This document shows, piece by piece, positions 4,875 to 31,545 of a DNA stretch of 64,000 nt (position 1 is the first letter of the stretch; every line of letters begins with the position of its first letter). The stretch comes from a virus. The notes below the pieces were generated by a model. That model was not told the DNA's origin, ran no database searches, and worked only from the letters and a program-made list of their open reading frames with translations. The position numbers were made by a program, and so were the translations under genes. The DNA is taken from UHGV virus genome UHGV-1484817; one strand, given 5' to 3'.

Positions 4875-7862
4875 ATGAGCTTAAGCGATCAGGTGGTAAT
4901 GGCCACCAGCATAGAAACGCTGATCGAGCTGCTAAAGAACCTGCCCGATTATGGGCGGGTTTCGTATGTGGTGACAGCGAAGGGAGACGAGGTAAAAACA
5001 GCGTTTGATATCGTCGATGCCTCAGCTCTTTTGGTATCCAATACTCTGGATGGGAAAATTAATCCTGACTATCCCCAGGAACTTCAACCGCGCGACCGGA
5101 CCCGCGCATCCAGCCTTCTTCAGGTTAACCAGATATCCAAGGATTTGCGGCCTGCTCAGCTTACCGATTCCGGTCTATCCAGCCATGGCGCGCCGATAAT
5201 TGGTGAGGACAATGCCGTTGAGTCAGGTAATGGACGGACCATGGGGATCATTAAAGCCTATCAGGACGGCAATGCGGATCGGTATCGTGAGTACCTGATT
5301 GATCATGCGACCGAATTCGGCATACGACCTGAAAAGGTTGAATCAATGACGGCTCCGGTACTGGTGCGCCGCCGGTTAACTAAGGTTGACCGCGTTCAGT
5401 TTGCCAAGGACTCAAATATTTCTGATCTTCAGGAAATGGCAGCCAGTGAAAAGGCTTTTGTTGATGCCGACAGCATAACACCGGCGATGATGGCGCTTTT
5501 TAACCCGTCAGAAAGCGGAGATCTGCTTAGCCGCAGTAATGACACGTTTATTCGCGGATTTATGACGCAAGTTGGTGCCACACAGGCGGCTGGCCTTGTA
5601 ACTGAAGATGGGCGACCAACACGGCAACTTGTAGACCGTATACAAAACGCGATCTTTGCCAAGGCATATAAGGATGCGCGCCTGGTAAGGATGGTTGCAG
5701 AAGAACCTGATCCGGATATGCGTAATGTTCTGACGGCGCTTAATGCGGCAGCCAATGATTTTGTCCAGATGCAGGCTTTGTCAGGAGAAGCGCACAAGCA
5801 GGCTGTGACAACTATTGTTGATGGCATTGAGACAGCGGATAGCCTCGATAAAAAGGCGCTGGCGGCATTGAAAGATGCGGTAGACCTGGTAAGGCAATCG
5901 AAGGAGTTAGGCCAGCATATTACCGATGTTATTGCTCAGGGGGATATGTTCAGCGAAACGGCCCCGGAAGTGAAAGCACTCGCGTTGTTCATCGTCGCGA
6001 ATAACCGTAGCGCGAAGCGTATGGCCACCGCCTTTAAGTTGATGGCGCAACGTATCAATGATGAGTTACAGCACCAGGGCCAGGCGCTCGGGGATATGTT
6101 TGGCGGCGGCGATGTGTCGTTACAGGATATCCTTCGCCAGGTGTCTCAGGAACTGGAAAACGAAGGCATGCAAGGGATATCCGGCGGTCTTTTCGAGTCC
6201 GTTTCCGGCGGTAGTTACAACGGTGTTGCTCCGTATACCAGTTTGCTATTACATCGGGCATCCGGCATCAAAGACATTATTCATCTGATCAGGCTGCTTT
6301 CCCGCACAGATCCCCAGGATGAACAGCTTGTACAAGTGCTTGCGCATTTTGTTCGAATGCCTGTTGCCGACGTGAATAAATGGTGCCGATTATTCGGTAT
6401 CAGCAATTCGTTACTTCGCGGATTGTTAAATCACGCATCCTCCCTTGGGCGCGACGGCTTTGATGAGATAGCGCAGGCGATACAAAACGGAGATATGCCA
6501 CCAGCTATTGACTGGTTTTCCATTCGCCCAACCAGGGTGAAAGCATTCCTTAGCGCGGCGCATTCGGCATCACCATTGGCAGAAATGGTTCAGAGGTTGT
6601 CGCTCATATTCACAGACCATACCGCGTTGGGTGATCTGACTCTGGACGAGATGAAAGAAGCCTCCATTCAGTGGGCCGATCAACAAAATGAGGTTAACTC
6701 AGACTTCTTGCCAGCATTCAGGAAGGCCGTTAGTAAAGCGGATGATTCCCGTGGAATTCTGAAGGCATTTAAGGCATTGCAAAGTCGGGTTAATAAACAT
6801 GTCGGAGATATCGATGGGGTAACGGCGGAAGGCAGGGATATCCTTAAAGAGCACGGCATAACGCCAGAGTTTATTGATGAGATCAGGACGGATATGCAGC
6901 GTGAGGTCGTATCGTCCCTGCAAATTGTAGCCAGAGCGTTGGCGGATGCTAATCCGAAGAGTGCGGCCATTGTTAACCGGGTTATTGGTGATATTGAAGC
7001 ATCGGAGGGCATGGGGGCGCTGAAACTCTTCCTTTCGCGAGCGTTTAATCCTAACGGCAATATTCTCCCTGGCATTATTGGTGAGGCTAAAAAGTATGTC
7101 AGTGAAGAAGAACTTGAGCAGCTTGACCAACTACTTAAGCGATTCTCATATAACCCGCAGACACGCTGGCAAATGAATCAGCGAAGTATGGGTTCGGTCC
7201 ACGAGAAAGTGTTATCTGCCATGAACAGTGCGATCGCAAACTCATCCGTATCTGAAGAAAAAGCTCTTGAGTGGGCCGACTCTTTTATCACAGAAGAAGT
7301 GGAAGAAGCCCGCGCTGGACAGAATGGTGGGATAGACCTGCGCAAGGAACTTGCTGATATTTATCGCCTGACCGGCGGGAAAATATCGACCTTATCAAAG
7401 GTAGTTCACCACCAGGGAAGGGCATATGCAAATCTAAATGGTGTTGTTGCTGTCAATTTGAACGATGAAAATGCAAGTGCACTGTGGCACGAGCTGGGTC
7501 ATCATCTTGAGTACAGTAACCCCGGTTTGTTAGAGAAAGCCCGGTCATTCCTGAAGGCCAATGTTGAAGGGGATAAGCCATCTTTCGTCAATATCGGTGG
7601 GCGTGGCAAGCCTGAATGGTGCTTCAGATCTCGATTGAGTAATATTTATATGGCGAAGGTATACCCGCCAGCCTCAGTAAGTAACACCGGGAAAATTCGG
7701 CAGAAATCACCGACTATTTCCAAAACGTCAGCAACGGAAGTATTCTCTATGGCTCTTCAGTTGTATCATGACAAAGAGGCCGCTGCCGCATCACTGATGA
7801 ATGGTGACGGATTGCTGGAACTGTTATTAGGTGTGGCAAAGGAGCTAAATAATGCAGATTAA
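4875..7862 (+). CDS. ddrB: DdrB-like large protein with an HExxH motif
   Basis: 995-aa ORF after ddrA; HELGH at about aa 872-876 (nt about 7488-7502); synteny with P1 ddrB. Confidence 0.55.
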   Translation: MSLSDQVVMATSIETLIELLKNLPDYGRVSYVVTAKGDEVKTAFDIVDASALLVSNTLDGKINPDYPQELQPRDRTRASSLLQVNQISKDLRPAQLTDSGLSSHGAPIIGEDNAVESGNGRTMGIIKAYQDGNADRYREYLIDHATEFGIRPEKVESMTAPVLVRRRLTKVDRVQFAKDSNISDLQEMAASEKAFVDADSITPAMMALFNPSESGDLLSRSNDTFIRGFMTQVGATQAAGLVTEDGRPTRQLVDRIQNAIFAKAYKDARLVRMVAEEPDPDMRNVLTALNAAANDFVQMQALSGEAHKQAVTTIVDGIETADSLDKKALAALKDAVDLVRQSKELGQHITDVIAQGDMFSETAPEVKALALFIVANNRSAKRMATAFKLMAQRINDELQHQGQALGDMFGGGDVSLQDILRQVSQELENEGMQGISGGLFESVSGGSYNGVAPYTSLLLHRASGIKDIIHLIRLLSRTDPQDEQLVQVLAHFVRMPVADVNKWCRLFGISNSLLRGLLNHASSLGRDGFDEIAQAIQNGDMPPAIDWFSIRPTRVKAFLSAAHSASPLAEMVQRLSLIFTDHTALGDLTLDEMKEASIQWADQQNEVNSDFLPAFRKAVSKADDSRGILKAFKALQSRVNKHVGDIDGVTAEGRDILKEHGITPEFIDEIRTDMQREVVSSLQIVARALADANPKSAAIVNRVIGDIEASEGMGALKLFLSRAFNPNGNILPGIIGEAKKYVSEEELEQLDQLLKRFSYNPQTRWQMNQRSMGSVHEKVLSAMNSAIANSSVSEEKALEWADSFITEEVEEARAGQNGGIDLRKELADIYRLTGGKISTLSKVVHHQGRAYANLNGVVAVNLNDENASALWHELGHHLEYSNPGLLEKARSFLKANVEGDKPSFVNIGGRGKPEWCFRSRLSNIYMAKVYPPASVSNTGKIRQKSPTISKTSATEVFSMALQLYHDKEAAAASLMNGDGLLELLLGVAKELNNAD

Positions 7863-8163
7863 AATCGCAGCGCCATTAGGCGGAGATGCCATTATCGAAT
7901 TTGATGATAATGAAGAAGTTTCCGGGCGTTTAAGCATTATCTCCGGTGACATTACCGAGGACATGATCGCTGAAGCCATAGCTGGGGCAAATCCCAATAG
8001 CTATATGGGATTCGTTAACACCCTTGATGCTCCCGCAAGTGATGTTCTCCGAACGCTGCATCTTTACGCTGGCTGGTTTGTTGATTGGCCAGCAGTAGAT
8101 GGTGGCGATGAGGACGACGACGACGATGATTTTGGTGATCATGTAGACCAGATCGTATATTGA
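7852..8163 (+). CDS. Small acidic protein with poly-Asp C-terminus (last gene of the dar operon)
   Basis: 103 aa; C-terminal GGDEDDDDDDFGD; 11-nt overlap with ddrB; lies where P1 has hxr but shows no HTH, so left unnamed. Confidence 0.4.
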   Translation: MQIKIAAPLGGDAIIEFDDNEEVSGRLSIISGDITEDMIAEAIAGANPNSYMGFVNTLDAPASDVLRTLHLYAGWFVDWPAVDGGDEDDDDDDFGDHVDQIVY

Positions 8164-8165
8164 AG

Positions 8166-8192
8166 AAATCCCGCCAATCGGCGGGATTTTTA
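8166..8192. terminator. Bidirectional intrinsic terminator between the convergent dar operon and ssb operon
   Basis: Hairpin AAATCCCGCC-AATC-GGCGGGATTT followed by TT, with A-run on the other side. Confidence 0.55.
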
Positions 8193-8194
8193 CC

Positions 8195-9289
8195 TCACGA
8201 GAAGCTTTTTTCTGATGTCAGCCAACAGTGCTCGTGCAAATCTCTTGGTGGTTTTTCGACAAATGCCTCTTCAGCCACATCCTGCCAGGGGATTTGTTTA
8301 GCCCATTCAGTTATAGCGTTATGGTTTGCCGAGAATAACGGTATTGTATAGGCCTTCAGCCAGTCTAATGTGCTGGAGTTGTGTTTTTGAGCGTGATGTT
8401 TCGCATGGTGTTTGGCGATCACGATCGTAGGCACTACCCATTTACTACCGTCAGTCATTGTGAAGTGCATATTACGGGGAACAGATGACTTTTCCATCAA
8501 CTCCCGAATCCCGGGGAATTTCCCCAAGATCAATCGGCGATATTCATCGCTATTGCGCCCACCAAACTCTTTGGCTTTGAATTCAAGATATGCTTCAGAA
8601 ACGAGAGGTGAATCCTCTGTGTTTAGAGTTATCGCCGTGAAAAAACCAGCAGGATTGTTTTTACTATGGGCCAACCGGTGATGCGAATCATAAAAGTACC
8701 CTTTCTCGCGTTCCGATGGTTTCGACAGCAACAGCAGGCGCGAGTCATAATTGGTTAAATTGCCAGTTATCACTGCATGAGCGCGATCGCTGATTTCCGC
8801 CGAGTTAATAACGATGAAAAGATCGTGCGGTCCAGTAAAACCAGCCAGAGACTCTTCGTTATTCAGACAATAGGTTATATAGACGCATCCCCATGTTTCA
8901 CTGATATGCACCAACCCTTTGTCAGGGTGTATTCTGAAATAATTGCCAAGAAAAGGGTGTTTTTGGGTAACTCGCTCCCAATAACGGAACATATAGTCAA
9001 TTATTGTTTTTCGACTATCGTTAATAGCAGGAGAAACAACCACTGTACGGGAACACGAATACAGTATTGTTTGCAGGATGCTAATCACTGCCACAATAGA
9101 GGTTTCCCCAATACCATGTGGTGTGGTGGCAGTGACTTTGGCTCCGGTGTTCTTTATCGCGTTAATAATTTTTGCTTGATGAGGTGTTAACTCAATATCA
9201 AGCAACTCTTTCGCTGCCAGTTCCCAATTGTCTTTATACTGTTCTATCAGTGCTAACCAGGCAGATTCATTCTGTATACGATTAATCAC
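8195..9289 (-). CDS. Paralog of terminase large-subunit (PacB) ATPase domain with degenerate Walker A and B
   Basis: 364 aa; aligns to the N-terminal half of the PacB encoded at 28868-30352 (ITGNLT...LLLLSKP...GYFYDSHHRLA...TAITLNTEDSPLV); Walker A is HGIGETS instead of HGTGKSD; Walker B is IVINSAE instead of YIIDEAS; no C-terminal nuclease domain. Confidence 0.7.
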   Translation of the reverse strand: MINRIQNESAWLALIEQYKDNWELAAKELLDIELTPHQAKIINAIKNTGAKVTATTPHGIGETSIVAVISILQTILYSCSRTVVVSPAINDSRKTIIDYMFRYWERVTQKHPFLGNYFRIHPDKGLVHISETWGCVYITYCLNNEESLAGFTGPHDLFIVINSAEISDRAHAVITGNLTNYDSRLLLLSKPSEREKGYFYDSHHRLAHSKNNPAGFFTAITLNTEDSPLVSEAYLEFKAKEFGGRNSDEYRRLILGKFPGIRELMEKSSVPRNMHFTMTDGSKWVVPTIVIAKHHAKHHAQKHNSSTLDWLKAYTIPLFSANHNAITEWAKQIPWQDVAEEAFVEKPPRDLHEHCWLTSEKSFS

Positions 9290-10076
9290 TTTCCACCTCT
9301 TCCGTGGTGTTTTCTCGCAGTTCTGTTAATGCAGCACGACACAGGTTCCGGGCTTTGGCTATAGCCACACTTTTTACCTCATCCGTCATTGTGCAGGTAA
9401 TGTACTGATCGAGTTCTTCAGCTCGGATGATGCTTTTCCCTATCATAAACTCTATTTGCCAGAGCAGATCGGCATCCATCGCCAGTATTTCAGCCTGGCC
9501 TTCTGGGCCTGCGGGGAAGCAAACATAAGACTGTTTGCCCAGGCCGATAACTCGACAACTTGCTTCAAGAATTGCACGCTTGAGGTCTGACTTTGTAACT
9601 GAAACAGGTTGATTTTCACCTGTGATTACGCCGTTGACATGGACGTGGAAGGGCATGTAGCTTGAAATTCGCTCTACTTTCCATACGCCAGCAAGCGATC
9701 CTTCATGCAGCACGATGGGGGTAACCGCGAGTTTCATCTCACCATATAACTGCTGGCAGATAACTGGATTACTGAATACATCCAGAGGTTCACACTCAAA
9801 CAGCGGCGCAATCTGCATGAGGTCCATCATGGTCATACCAGGGGTACGAGCAGTAATGAATTTGCGCATACCAGTATCCATTGCGCTCCAGATTGCTACA
9901 CCATGCTTTTTGCTCACTTCTTCAGTAAAGCCAAGGTGGCACATGATGGTTTTTTCGATAGCCAGATCGGAGATAGAAACCTTTTCGCCAGGTACACCAT
10001 CATTATTGATGGTCACTTCGACACTCTGGCCATTACGCAGGCGGTATTGAATTGCTTTAGTATTTTGTGCTGCCAT
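9282..10076 (-). CDS. Hypothetical protein in ssb operon
   Basis: ORF 9282-10196 trimmed to the Met at 10076 (MAAQNTK) because the longer frame overlaps the upstream small ORF; 8-nt overlap with the terminase-like gene. Confidence 0.45.
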   Translation of the reverse strand: MAAQNTKAIQYRLRNGQSVEVTINNDGVPGEKVSISDLAIEKTIMCHLGFTEEVSKKHGVAIWSAMDTGMRKFITARTPGMTMMDLMQIAPLFECEPLDVFSNPVICQQLYGEMKLAVTPIVLHEGSLAGVWKVERISSYMPFHVHVNGVITGENQPVSVTKSDLKRAILEASCRVIGLGKQSYVCFPAGPEGQAEILAMDADLLWQIEFMIGKSIIRAEELDQYITCTMTDEVKSVAIAKARNLCRAALTELRENTTEEVESD

Positions 10077-10090
10077 AGTCTTTTCTCTGC

Positions 10091-10273
10091 TTAAAAACTG
10101 ATGTATTGCGCCTTCAGGTGGGTCAGGAATGTTTTCCCACCAGCGAAAGCAATATCTCGGGGTGTTCTTTTCGTGAAAAGCGCGTTCCATTGCCAACTTT
10201 GGCGTTTTTTAGCGAGTTCGTGCTTTTGTTGGCGTTTGGACCACCGCTTTTCTTTCAGTCGTTTTTTACTCAT
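10091..10273 (-). CDS. Possible small basic protein directly downstream of ssb
   Basis: 60-aa ORF, highly basic (KKRLKEKRWSKRQQK), starting 6 nt after the ssb stop; could be non-coding. Confidence 0.25.
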   Translation of the reverse strand: MSKKRLKEKRWSKRQQKHELAKKRQSWQWNALFTKRTPRDIAFAGGKTFLTHLKAQYISF

Positions 10274-10278
10274 AAACT

Positions 10279-10767
10279 CTAAAACGGAATATCGTCTTCA
10301 AAGTCCATTGGAGGTTCGTTATTGGCGCTGCTCTGAGGTTTGCCGCCACCGCTGTATTGCTGGTGGTTTTGAGGTTGGTTTGACTGCCCCCAGCCATTTG
10401 AGGACTGTGAATCGTCGCGGCGAGCGCCGATCATTTGCATGGTGCCGCCCTGGCTGACGATAATTTCCGTCGTGTAACGTTCTACACCGGCGTCATCTGT
10501 CCACTTACGGGTTTTAAGTTTCCCTTCGATGTAGACCTGAGAACCTTTTCGTAAATACTCACTCGCGATTTCAGCAAGTTTTCCGAACAAAACGACTTTA
10601 TGCCATTCTGTTTGCTCTTTCTGTTGGCCTGTTTGCTTGTCGCGCCATGATTCATTCGTTGCGATGCTGAGTCTTCCGACTGCTCCGCCATTTGGTATAT
10701 ACCTGATATCTGGGTCTTGTCCCAGGGTACCTATCAGGATGACTTTATTTACACCGCGTTGTGCCAC
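10279..10767 (-). CDS. ssb: Single-stranded DNA-binding protein
   Basis: 162 aa; N-terminus [23 protein letters not shown] close to E. coli SSB; Gly/Gln-rich linker; C-terminal acidic tip DDIPF. Confidence 0.95.
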
Positions 10768-10786
10768 TTATCTCACCTAATAAAAT

Positions 10787-10803
10787 AAATTAATTAGAGC
10801 AAT
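10787..10803. promoter_or_regulatory. C1 operator-like site in the ssb/lyz divergent region
   Basis: AAATTAATTAGAGCAAT, 16 of 17 matches to the reverse complement of the C1 operator consensus. Confidence 0.55.
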
Positions 10804-10936
10804 AATGTATATCTTTGAAACGTAGCTAACAAGTGATTTGCATTATCCTGTACCTTCTAAAGGGATCGAGTCAGTCGGTATTGGCTGTGAATGGGTGTTT
10901 GTCCTGGAGCGTAAAAAATTCGCTTATGAGGTCTTT

Positions 10937-28867: not shown

Positions 28868-30352
28868 TCATTCGTTAAGCCATGCCAGAGCTTCATCAAC
28901 CTGCGCTTCGTCTTCGACGCTAAGCACTTCATCCTGGGGAACATAATCCGCCAGCATAGCGAAACAATATGTATCCCAATGGTCTGGTGAGTGCAGGTTG
29001 AGTTTTTTCTTCATATCCTCCTTACTCATCACCTTCCATTGACCTGCGGAGTTAATCCCTACAGGGATTTTCGACGCTTCCTCAATAGTTTCATTACCCT
29101 TATCCAGTCTCATACGACCAGATTTTACGGCCTCTGCGGCTTGAACGTTGGCATAAGCACGTTTATCAAAGTACAGGCTCTTATCTTCACGGCTATGCAT
29201 CTTTTTACCCCAGCGTATACGCTGTACGGTAATACCATAATACTCGTACATCAGATCCGCCGTTGCTTTACCCAGGCCATCGCCGTCTATCGCTATGGTG
29301 ATATTTGGGAATCGCTCAGGATTACATTCTGCGAAAATTTTGGCGGCAAGCTGCGTTTCTGTAACGTCTGTGTATTCCAGCATTCGATAGTTGATTACAC
29401 GGCGTTTATTTCGCTGGCCGGACACCATCATGATATTGATAACGGACTTATCCCGTCCCGTACCACCAGCAACGTCCACACATGCAAGCCAGCCCCATCC
29501 TTTTGCAATCTTGACTTTCCGCCGCGTTGCACGTTCAACCTCATCACGTCCAAGAAGGAAGCCATCCTGTGATTTAGGGAATAGGCCGCGTACCTTAATC
29601 ATGTACATAGGGTTATCACGCCCGCCGTACTCCGCCAGCTTCATTTTGATAAATGCTGGCGTTACCAACGGTGATTCCTCACTGTTAAGCGTGATCGCCG
29701 TATAAACGCCATCAGGGTTACCAGGACGCTTGGCCAGTTTATGGTGTGTATCGTAGAAATAGCCGCTTGGGCGTGTAGGCTGTGACAGCAATAAGATGCG
29801 GTTATCCTGTCCGGTAAGAGCACCGGTGATGATACCGAAAGCTCTATCACTGACACCGGAGGCTTCATCGATAATATACAGAAGATGATCTGCGTGTTCA
29901 CCGGCGAGAGCTTCTTCACTTCCCAGACGAAAGCCCTTCGGTACTACAGTCCATACACCTTTACCAGTAATCTCATAGAAAGCGGTTTCTGTCAGAACAA
30001 AATAATCAGCAAGCCATGGGAAACGGCTGGTGGCAGTAGCCCAGTTTATCTTGATGTACTTGAATATACCGGTCATTACCTGCTGAATTTTGTTCGCAAC
30101 GATAATGGCACGGGCACCTGGATACATGATTATGAACAACATGATCATGATAGAAGTCATGTCTGATTTCCCGGTACCGTGACCAGACGAAACAGATGTC
30201 TTGCTACCCTGTTCCTGCACAGACTCAATAATCAGATCCTGCTGCCAGGTAGGTGTTTTGCCGAACAAAACATCAGCGGCAGCAATCCAGTCATAACGAT
30301 ATAGCGCCACCAGCTCGCGCCAACGTGGATCCGTTACGCAACTTCTGGCCAT
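28868..30352 (-). CDS. pacB: Terminase large subunit PacB
   Basis: 494 aa; Walker [11 protein letters not shown], Walker [12 protein letters not shown]-terminal nuclease-like region; overlaps the pacA stop. Confidence 0.9.
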
Positions 30353-31545
30353 TAATCATCATCCCCGTATAGCTTGCGGGTAACTTCTTCGTCTTCCTCC
30401 TCGTCTTCGTCCAGGTCTTGTTCCAGCCATGGGTCGTTTGATACACCTTCAGTATCAACATCTCCATAACCGCCTGTATCAACGATATCGGCGATTTCTT
30501 CCCTACGCTGCTCAATCCACAATGCGGCATCGGCGCGGCGGTTGGCGGCCCGTTCTCGCGCAACTTTGTCCAGATCTTCAAGAGAAGGGCCACCGACGGC
30601 TGTTTGCCTTTCCTCATCATCGGTATTGGTCTTAGGAGCACGCAGATCGGCTTTGATTTGCTCCAGCATCAGGGGCGGCACTTTTCCGCCATGCGCCTCG
30701 ATGAATTCAGCTGCTTCCAGCACTGACCAGTTATTTTCACGCTTTCGTTCGTATGCCAGCTTAACAATGCCAGCTTGCCCCATAGATAAAGCGTGCTTTT
30801 CCGCCTCCCGGCTTTCTTTTCGATAGTTATTCCGGATGCTGTAAATGGTGTTGATCAGGCTGCTTATCTGCGCGGAACAGCTGTTTAGCATGCTCGCGAT
30901 ACGATATTCAGGCGGAGTCCCTTCATCATCGTCTTTTTGCTGATCGCGCATTTCCTGCACCAGACGAATACACGTATCCCTGGCATTCTCCAGCATAAGG
31001 AGATGAGAAAGAGACTTTTCCAGAAGAGTGGTTTCCAGAACATCGGCCCCGGACCGACGCAACATAGCGCGCGCAGCCTTCCGCGCTTCAACGTTATCTA
31101 TCAGGTAATCGCCAGCTTCGAATTCAAAGCGTTCACCATCATCATCCAGGGTGTCGCGTTCCAGGCGATCACGTAAGGTCCGGTGGGCGCGGGTGATCAC
31201 GTCATGATCATCAGAACGATCATTTATGCGCTTATTTTGGCGCTTCGCATTCTCGACTGCGGCACTGACAACGGCATTAACCCTTTGTTTTTCCGCTATT
31301 TCAGCCGCAATGTGATCACCTGCATGTTGATCATTAGAGTGATCAATGATCATGCTTTTTAGTGGCTTCCTGACTGGCTTATTTGGCTTGCGGCTGTCCG
31401 CTGTCCTGGTGTCTTCTTTGAAGGCACGGAGATAACGACGTGCAGTATTAGGGTTAAGATTAAACTCGGCGGCATACTGTGCGATGGTGTAACCACCATC
31501 TCGCGCCAGGCGAGCAAAATTCTTCTTGTGATCGTCCCAGGTCAC
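30352..31545 (-). CDS. pacA: Terminase subunit PacA (contains the pac site)
   Basis: 397 aa; N-terminal DNA-binding-like region, acidic C-terminus; GATC-rich pac repeats inside the coding sequence; start appears to be GTG. Confidence 0.9.
31190..31355. other. pac: pac packaging site
   Basis: Three TGATCA-type hexamers at about 31194-31221 and four at about 31313-31352, separated by about 90 bp; matches the published P1 pac architecture of seven hexanucleotide elements. Confidence 0.7.

Follow-up and report, generated by a model that had tools for sequence, protein, structure and literature searches.

Why a P1-like phage-plasmid should possess a second gene resembling that of its large terminase subunit, and should carry it in the ssb operon, is the question raised by positions 8,195 to 10,273 of UHGV virus genome UHGV-1484817. 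The entire stretch of 64,000 nucleotides (nt), whose source is such a phage-plasmid, was analyzed and is referred to as the window. A prior examination of the letters without database searches (the sequence-only reading) had proposed that a 364-amino acid (aa) protein encoded in this region is a catalytically dead paralog of PacB, the large terminase subunit specified elsewhere in the window. The open reading frame (ORF) was recovered with the length, coordinates and strand that had been described (Table 1), and the gene is designated dTerL here. The comparisons below make it very probable that the protein is a pseudo-enzyme that arose from the ATPase domain of a PacB-type large terminase, both in its identity and in its non-catalytic nature.

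A Terminase ATPase Fold with Degenerate Motifs

Residues 11–272 of dTerL aligned in BLASTP with residues 11–274 of PacB from the window at 36% identity over 266 aa with an expectation value (E) of 6e-55, which places the N-terminal similarity noted previously far above chance. Both proteins fell into phrog_5902 of the PHROGs database, and dTerL also produced a weaker match to phrog_2, the terminase large subunit family (E = 5.5e-9). The AlphaFold (AF2) model of dTerL had a predicted local distance difference test (pLDDT) score of 74 overall, and its best PDB matches in Foldseek were the large terminases of D6E, T4, and P74-26. A homologous terminase-type ASCE ATPase domain is present in dTerL. 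The closest terminase relative is PacB of P1 and P1-like elements (35–36% identity), with which dTerL has N-terminal helices, Q motif, C-motif region, and lid in common. Whereas PacB keeps the Walker A lysine, the Walker B Asp-Glu pair, the nuclease domain, and a location in the late operon beside pacA, dTerL has none of these and is optional.

In the Walker A motif, HGIGETS of dTerL corresponds to HGTGKSD of PacB such that Glu62 occupies the position of the catalytic lysine, as had been proposed, and Thr-Pro replaces the conserved Ser-Gly of the P-loop. The lysine of the G-K-[ST] signature is absent from dTerL and the other lineages carry Arg, Gln, or His at this position. For Walker B, an ungapped alignment placed FIVINSAE of dTerL opposite YIIDEASG of PacB, with Ile161 in place of the aspartate and Asn162 in place of the catalytic glutamate. 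The loss of the Asp-Glu pair described in the sequence-only reading is upheld, but the assignment of Asn-Ser as the replacing residues is not, as the register was one residue off; the conclusion is unchanged because the acidic pair is absent in either register. Among four dTerL lineages the terminal Asp-Glu of Walker B was not found: the aspartate position is occupied by Ile, Val, Thr, and Met, and the glutamate position by Asn, Asp, Glu, and Asp, respectively.

The four dTerL lineages were aligned with five catalytically competent terminases, namely the PacB proteins of the window, D6, and a Vibrio P1-like plasmid, the large terminase of Xanthomonas Rb1, and P0003. Thirty-five columns were invariant among the competent proteins and 16 of these were kept in every dTerL lineage, comprising the Q motif, two P-loop glycines, W134, G151, the lid signature G-x-F-x-D-x-H-H, S-P, G244, Y250, G256, and F258. 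The columns lost in all four lineages were S56, G57, K62, Q91, H153, D162, G166, and R194, of which the arginine position lies directly after the C-motif, and the catalytic glutamate was mostly lost. The N-terminal helices, lid subdomain, and fold-defining residues therefore have been kept but the active site has been taken apart, with replacements specific to each lineage, which is the signature of a pseudo-enzyme and not of sequencing error. The same motifs recurred in ~120 plasmids, in 100 complete Escherichia coli genomes, and in an allele with 93.7% DNA identity, which likewise disposes of sequencing error. Loss of the Walker A lysine, the P-loop Ser-Gly, the Walker B aspartate, the arginine after the C-motif and, mostly, the glutamate means that dTerL cannot serve as an ATP-driven translocase. 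Furthermore, the protein ends at residue 364 and its residues 270–364 did not align with residues 275–494 of PacB. The nuclease domain is absent, as the sequence-only reading had stated, and dTerL accordingly cannot cut DNA.

Membership of the pseudo-terminase family was defined by a PacB-like fold in which both Walker motifs (A and B) are degenerate, joined to a C-terminal domain of the phrog_17928 type, and by overlap with an isaA gene directly upstream. The architecture and the motif losses were common to the window and to L002, L012, L025, L003, L004, P0002, and P0004.

The isaA-dTerL Gene Pair

The 264-aa protein encoded upstream of dTerL was 95% identical to residues 57–320 of P1 IsaA, with 96% identity of the DNA, and on this evidence is the IsaA ortholog. 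The co-orientation and overlap of the two genes that had been observed previously were seen again: the end of isaA and the beginning of dTerL share 8 nt (GTGATTAA), and the GTG start codon of dTerL lies behind a strong ribosome-binding site, GAGGTGG. The arrangement is consistent with translational coupling. The plasmids of rep_cluster_1704 display the order dut, a Tad2-like gene, an isaA-like gene, and a pseudo-terminase gene, followed by doc/phd on the opposite strand. The IsaA-like proteins of these plasmids are 45–48% identical and the pseudo-terminases 50–52% identical to those of the window, and a stop/start overlap is again present. The equal divergence and the conserved overlap argue that IsaA and dTerL are inherited together as a two-gene unit. 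No family was detectable for IsaA in library searches and no relative was found in PDB. Derivation of the two genes from a duplicated PacA-PacB pair was considered and rejected as BLASTP and hhalign revealed no similarity between IsaA and PacA.

The annotated IsaA protein of P1 (320 aa, GTG start) possesses a 56-aa N-terminal extension (L001:4369-4536) that is not conserved. An in-frame TAA interrupts the counterpart in the window, and in SJ46 the leader peptide sequence is joined to a Tad2-like ORF instead of to IsaA. The extension therefore probably is a leader and not part of the protein, and the real start of IsaA probably is the conserved ATG. A 60-aa ORF in another frame (10091–10273) probably is spurious and not a gene.

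Transcription Signals of the ssb Operon

The C1 operator consensus was matched nine times in the window compared to zero matches expected by chance. The position of dTerL downstream of both ssb and a C1 operator-like site, as previously suggested, was corroborated by an operator with a single mismatch (Table 1), and the Ossb operator and the P1ssb and P2ssb promoters annotated in P1 map to the region upstream of ssb. A consensus promoter scan of the ssb-isaA-dTerL unit disclosed no convincing internal minus-strand promoter. The hairpin between dTerL and hxr has a minimum free energy of −21.4 kcal/mol (z = −4.05) and was missed by a simple consensus terminator scan. Its predicted structure probably acts as a bidirectional intrinsic terminator at which the ssb-isaA-dTerL transcript would end. 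From these signals we infer that dTerL is expressed on an early, C1-repressed ssb-isaA-dTerL transcript and not with the late pac operon. The gene does not adjoin a small-subunit gene in a late packaging operon, but instead sits in the ssb operon. The nine matches, which include an overlapping inverted pair at 58359–58386, are as expected for a P1-type immunity network.

The kinship with PacB and the timing of expression bear on the proposal that dTerL modulates packaging, in which its ATPase domain would have preserved the PacB surfaces for contact with PacA or neighboring motor subunits and would bind these in inactive complexes, for instance to restrain early pac cleavage or to tune headful packaging. 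Conservation with PacB is highest in the N-terminal ~45 residues and in the lid subdomain, and in other terminases the N-terminal region and the lid mediate contacts with the small subunit or between subunits. The dTerL protein would be made before products of the late pacAB operon. Moreover, a phage satellite is known to inhibit packaging by manipulation of the motor (PMC11417361). However, packaging is normal in P1 and the majority of P1-like elements, which have no dTerL. The protein is only ~35% identical to its own PacB and does not co-vary with the PacB allele: the same PacB type is present in SJ46, RCS47, and JL22, all of which are devoid of dTerL. As IsaA is not related to PacA, and the pair resides in the early ssb operon beside anti-defense genes instead of in the pac operon, a packaging role is regarded as unlikely.

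The C-Terminal Domain Belongs to a Large Phage Family

The C-terminal part of dTerL had been described as an unrelated His/Lys-rich tail. Instead, these residues are predicted to comprise a folded domain of ~95 aa that belongs to a large phage family. An AF2 model generated from 119 sequences scored a pLDDT of 87 and depicted a small alpha/beta domain for which structure comparison found no match among solved structures. When the last 108 residues were used in phmmer against 1.8 billion representative proteins, 149 matches were returned, most of which are stand-alone proteins of ~100 aa. The consensus of the domain is MPDGSxWxVP..IA..RA..YA...TLPLF...DWAxNNMNW.DV...GWxNG. A profile search added 597 matches, all annotated as hypothetical and without a Pfam domain. 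The dTerL tail also matched the C-terminus of phrog_17928 (E = 1.4e-13), the N-terminus of which is DUF1351-like, and elsewhere the domain likewise is fused to DUF1351-type proteins. Searches of Pfam, NCBIfam, and PADLOC with the 364-aa protein, IsaA, and the tail domain yielded nothing informative, PHROGs returned only families of unknown function, and PDB sequence searches gave zero matches. That the tail is the degenerate remainder of a nuclease was rejected as it does not align with the PacB C-terminus and is a member of the stand-alone domain family. The stand-alone family encompasses at least 597 clusters (P0153-P0270; loci L006-L011, L014, and L018) and is a candidate for a new domain definition.

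The two modules also occur in reversed order. In P0021 (L015:10001-10741, contig of GCA_024867085.4) a domain of the tail type is N-terminal and is followed by a PacB-like ATPase region whose Walker A sequence, GSGTGTTT, again is without the lysine. The context of this gene is P1-like (Ref, RdgC), and the gene is truncated by a 548-aa reverse-strand ORF that is transposase-like by appearance. Intact relatives of the reversed fusion were not found in viral contigs, in which only stand-alone domains were detected. Fusion of the same two modules in both orders argues that they work jointly.

The stand-alone genes reside in early accessory regions of lambdoid prophages, typically of the nin or early-left type. 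Their locations include the interval that separates ninB from a dnaB-type replication gene and, in the early-left operon, a site next to the integrase gene, with DUF551, Ead/Ea22, dATP/dGTP pyrophosphohydrolase, and Lar genes as neighbors. A DnaB-type helicase gene precedes the stand-alone gene in Cronobacter phage JK004 and in a related viral contig of 90 kb. The stand-alone proteins are acidic, with a median isoelectric point (pI) of 4.3 and a net charge of approximately −12. These positions prompt consideration of dTerL and IsaA as a replication or recombination accessory, that is, as a scaffold that binds DNA or SSB during early DNA metabolism. In keeping with this, dTerL would be co-transcribed with ssb, the module follows dut in the rep_cluster_1704 lineage, stand-alone tail genes follow dnaB or ban-type helicase genes in both lambdoid and P1-like phages, and the domain has the additional DUF1351-type fusion partners. 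Yet such positions are generic hot spots for accessory genes, dTerL is dispensable and patchily distributed, library searches detected no DNA-binding motif or family, and isaA, like isaB, is non-essential in P1 as judged by CRISPR interference (PMC10695390). A role of this kind therefore is considered doubtful.

Distribution, Selection, and Origin

The dTerL gene is optional and is absent from P1. A full-length copy was found in 100 of 5,426 complete E. coli genomes, with 99 of the 100 located on plasmids, and proteins at least 80% identical are encoded by ~120 plasmids in PLSDB. IsaA was present in 474 plasmids, either as the P1 type (336) or as a divergent type (138). A pseudo-terminase gene follows isaA in roughly one-third of each type, estimated as ~120 plasmids of the P1 type and ~40 of the divergent type, the latter figure being extrapolated from an evenly spaced sample of matches.

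Comparison of dTerL with the intact allele of 93.7% DNA identity revealed 31 synonymous and 38 non-synonymous changes, and a ratio of non-synonymous to synonymous substitution rates (dN/dS) of 0.32. Regional values were 0.20 for residues 151–262, 0.24 for the tail, and 0.56 for residues 91–150. The dN/dS value for the pseudo-terminases of two divergent rep_cluster_1704 lineages was 0.29. The substitution pattern indicates that dTerL is a live gene under purifying selection, in which residues 91–150 may constitute a diversifying or recombining surface patch. Amino acid differences among close alleles were concentrated in residues ~92–146, where 17 of 34 substitutions relative to L025 were positioned (window 8840–9019 corresponds to residues 91–150).

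These values also address whether dTerL is merely a decaying duplicate of pacB that is carried passively. The catalytic residues have been lost, the gene is dispensable, and insertion sequences or transposons have disrupted it repeatedly, as might be anticipated for a relic. Nevertheless, at least 100 genomes contain an intact ORF, dN/dS is 0.2–0.3 in the lid and tail, the pairing with IsaA is kept, overlap included, across ~50% divergence, structural residues are strictly retained, and the ribosome-binding site is strong. The selection and conservation data effectively refute this explanation, which is held to be highly improbable.

A dominant-negative terminase subunit might also serve as a weapon that poisons the motors of co-infecting P1-like elements, other phages, or satellites. 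The possession of a motor-subunit fold without activity fits this notion, as does the faster evolution of dTerL compared to PacB with greatest variability in the patch at residues 91–150. Exclusion functions usually act in the lysogen, but expression there is not expected from a C1-repressed promoter. In addition, the protein would poison its own PacB unless it was specific for foreign motors, and dN/dS is less than one everywhere. Such a weapon is a rather remote prospect.

The origin of dTerL was assessed in a neighbor-joining tree of ATPase domains. The catalytically dead proteins formed a monophyletic clade (100% bootstrap) whose sister group comprised the PacB proteins of P1, D6, and Vibrio (100%), and the two clades grouped together against the Xanthomonas Rb1 terminase (78%). 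The PacB proteins are 59–62% identical to each other and the dead proteins 44–54% identical to each other, with ~35% identity between the two sets. The identities and the tree are as expected if dTerL arose long ago by duplication or acquisition within the P1-like lineage and evolved faster thereafter.

A Modular Slot after isaA

P1 DNA matched the window at 7800–8161 (hxr) and at 9281–10900 (isaA, ssb, and the lyz promoter region), and window positions 8162–9280 had no match in P1 DNA. The dTerL gene fills exactly the slot between the isaA and hxr stop codons which in P1 is occupied by IS1 and isaB. The sequence-only reading had left undecided whether the two genes are intact forms of P1 isaA and isaB. 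This holds for isaA, but not for isaB: the 364-aa protein and P1 IsaB (201 aa, phrog_30162) produced no BLASTP or BLASTN match and belong to different PHROGs, and the notion that the former is an intact IsaB was rejected. The isaB gene instead is an alternative cassette that is full length in ~25 plasmids. IS1 in P1 is flanked by a 9-base pair (bp) direct repeat (CAGAGGGCA), and this target duplication indicates that the element inserted simply between isaA and isaB without causing a deletion. Loss of the 364-aa gene from P1 due to IS1 was rejected on account of this clean duplication.

The region after ssb is recognized as variable in P1-like phage-plasmids (PMC9603915, PMC6906374). Its organization is modular, consisting of an optional Tad2-like DUF2829 gene, isaA, and then a pseudo-terminase gene, isaB, a 95-aa ORF, or nothing. 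The unrelated 95-aa ORF, which is without a Pfam family, occupies the slot in phage Ro157c2YLVW (L021:1077-1364). The interval between isaA and hxr has been struck repeatedly by mobile elements (L005:4001-6399; L013:1694-2398; L001:2712-3479). ISEc60 splits the pseudo-terminase gene at residue ~259 in Escherichia albertii, IS26 lies upstream of the gene in pDETEC72 with isaA removed, and an ISSod13-family transposase is annotated near this interval in RCS47. Coordinates of the features considered here are collected in Table 1.

Table 1. Positions of dTerL, associated genes, and signals. Unprefixed coordinates are those of the window.
Feature	Position	Strand	Remarks
ddrB	4875–7862	+	Gene of the Dar antirestriction system
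hxr	7852–8163	+	Convergent with dTerL
GC-rich hairpin	8166–8189	−	Stem of 10 bp with GAUU loop; separates the convergent genes dTerL and hxr
dTerL, pseudo-terminase gene (364 aa)	8195–9289	−	PacB-like ATPase-fold domain (~residues 1–262) and C-terminal ~95-aa domain
dTerL C-terminal ~95-aa domain, residues 270–364	8198–8482	−	In place of the nuclease domain; phrog_17928 C-terminus
dTerL degenerate Walker B remnant, L157-F-I-V-I-N162	8804–8821	−	Alignment to PacB
dTerL degenerate Walker A (P-loop) remnant, T55-T-P-H-G-I-G-E-T63	9101–9127	−	Alignment to PacB
isaA ortholog (264 aa)	9282–10076	−	BLASTP to P1 IsaA; phrog_2326
ssb-isaA spacer/leader	10077–10278	−	Equivalent to the N-terminal extension of P1 IsaA (320 aa)
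ssb	10279–10767	−	First gene of the operon; ORF and comparison with P1
C1 repressor operator ATTGCTCTAATTAATTT	10787–10803	−	Ossb/Op21 equivalent; one mismatch to consensus
pacB	28868–30352	−	Catalytically intact large terminase; paralog comparator outside the isaA-dTerL module
pacA	30352–31545		With pacB, far from the ssb operon
Tad2-like gene	L003:2557-3219
Tad2-like gene	L020:1683-2528
Tad2-like gene	L021:2400-3077
Tad2-like gene	L025:3083-3495

A Counter-Defense Role for dTerL?

In L003, SJ46, Ro157c2, and L025 a Tad2-like gene (PF11195, E = 2e-22) is located directly upstream of isaA. The window and P1 are without this gene and possess only a ~200-bp leader at the position. In many relatives, ssb and isaA are separated by a gene for a ~220-aa protein that has a Tad2-like (DUF2829) C-terminal domain and is a candidate sponge for a Thoeris signal. 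Tad2 itself, a member of DUF2829, acts as a sponge of Thoeris signals, and anti-defense genes have been reported to co-localize in phage genomes (10.1101/2023.05.01.538930). On the other flank, ddrB of the Dar antirestriction system is adjacent to the dTerL region. The Tad2-like and Dar genes are optional cargo of the same variable region and have no relation in sequence or fold to dTerL. By association, this context of Tad2-like and Dar neighbors, early operon, and patchy distribution favors a role in counter-defense over one in packaging. Counter-defense or another host interaction is our leading reading of dTerL, offered as a guess that is possible but some way short of probable.

The dTerL protein presumably acts by binding and not by catalysis, probably in complex with IsaA and early in lytic growth. 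Avs1-3 and Upx bind the ATPase domains of terminases directly, and EcAvs2 reads both an active-site ATP and a bridging ATP in the terminase ATPase domain (PMC13601566). In one version of the mechanism, a terminase look-alike made before the real terminase would occupy or misdirect these sensors, and a mimic that is made early and has no nucleotide site could engage them unproductively. In a second version, dTerL would serve as a scaffold, bringing its C-terminal domain to a target of this kind. Features of the active site and bound ATP are read by Avs2 and Avs3, and for this reason the loss of the nucleotide site in dTerL may itself be adaptive. Alternatively, the site might have been lost so as to avoid triggering the sensors while the protein serves another purpose. 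The specific proposal that dTerL mimics its own packaging ATPase and thereby blinds or pre-empts Avs1-3 and Upx, possibly with IsaA, is more speculative than counter-defense in general and is viewed as improbable.

Several observations weigh against counter-defense. The link to anti-defense genes is one of positional association. A terminase-like fold is expected to trigger Avs-type sensors and not to block them, as exemplified by T4 vs.8, another terminase-ATPase paralog, which engages EcAvs2 (PMC13601566). The AF2 model of the ATPase part is moderate, with a pLDDT of less than 50 in the P-loop. IsaA has no recognizable fold or family. The tail of dTerL is neutral, with His and Lys enriched in helix 1, unlike its acidic stand-alone relatives. 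The presence of ssb in the operon and the location of stand-alone tail genes after replication genes fit a role in DNA metabolism about equally. Known anti-Avs proteins, a ligase and an Smf-like protein, are unrelated to dTerL, and a counter-defense function consequently would be new if true. Library searches also showed no homology between dTerL and named families.

Relation to Known Systems and Significance

The T4 vs.8 protein resembles dTerL in being a second, stand-alone copy of a terminase ATPase in addition to the real terminase, but has kept Walker A and Walker B, is devoid of an extra C-terminal domain, and has no known partner gene (PMC13601566). The gene for dTerL is labeled "terminase large subunit" (MH422554, MH445380) or "hypothetical protein" in databases. 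A literature search found no paper describing dTerL, and a general search for decoys or paralogs of terminases uncovered no pertinent work. To our knowledge, vs.8 and dTerL have no sequence relationship beyond the shared superfamily. A large-terminase pseudo-enzyme that is joined to a new domain and accompanied by a conserved partner gene appears to be new.

The analysis corrects the database labels, as well as the grouping of dTerL with PacB in PHROGs, and clarifies the form taken in natural relatives by the P1 region of isaA, IS1, and isaB, which has long been mysterious. A large family of ~100-aa acidic phage domains gains a first functional handle through its two independent fusions to dead terminases. 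Large terminases rank with the best-conserved proteins of phages and are now recognized as principal targets of innate immune sensors in bacteria. As a conserved, dead copy that is under selection and would be made early in infection, dTerL, which resides in the best-studied family of phage-plasmids, is a defined candidate for a new regulator, either as a decoy against terminase sensing or as a non-enzymatic modulator of the packaging motor. Were the mimic proposal true, dTerL would be the first case of a phage that inhibits NLR-like immunity of bacteria by encoding a mimic of a viral protein that is sensed, and loss of its nucleotide site would uncouple receptor binding from activation.

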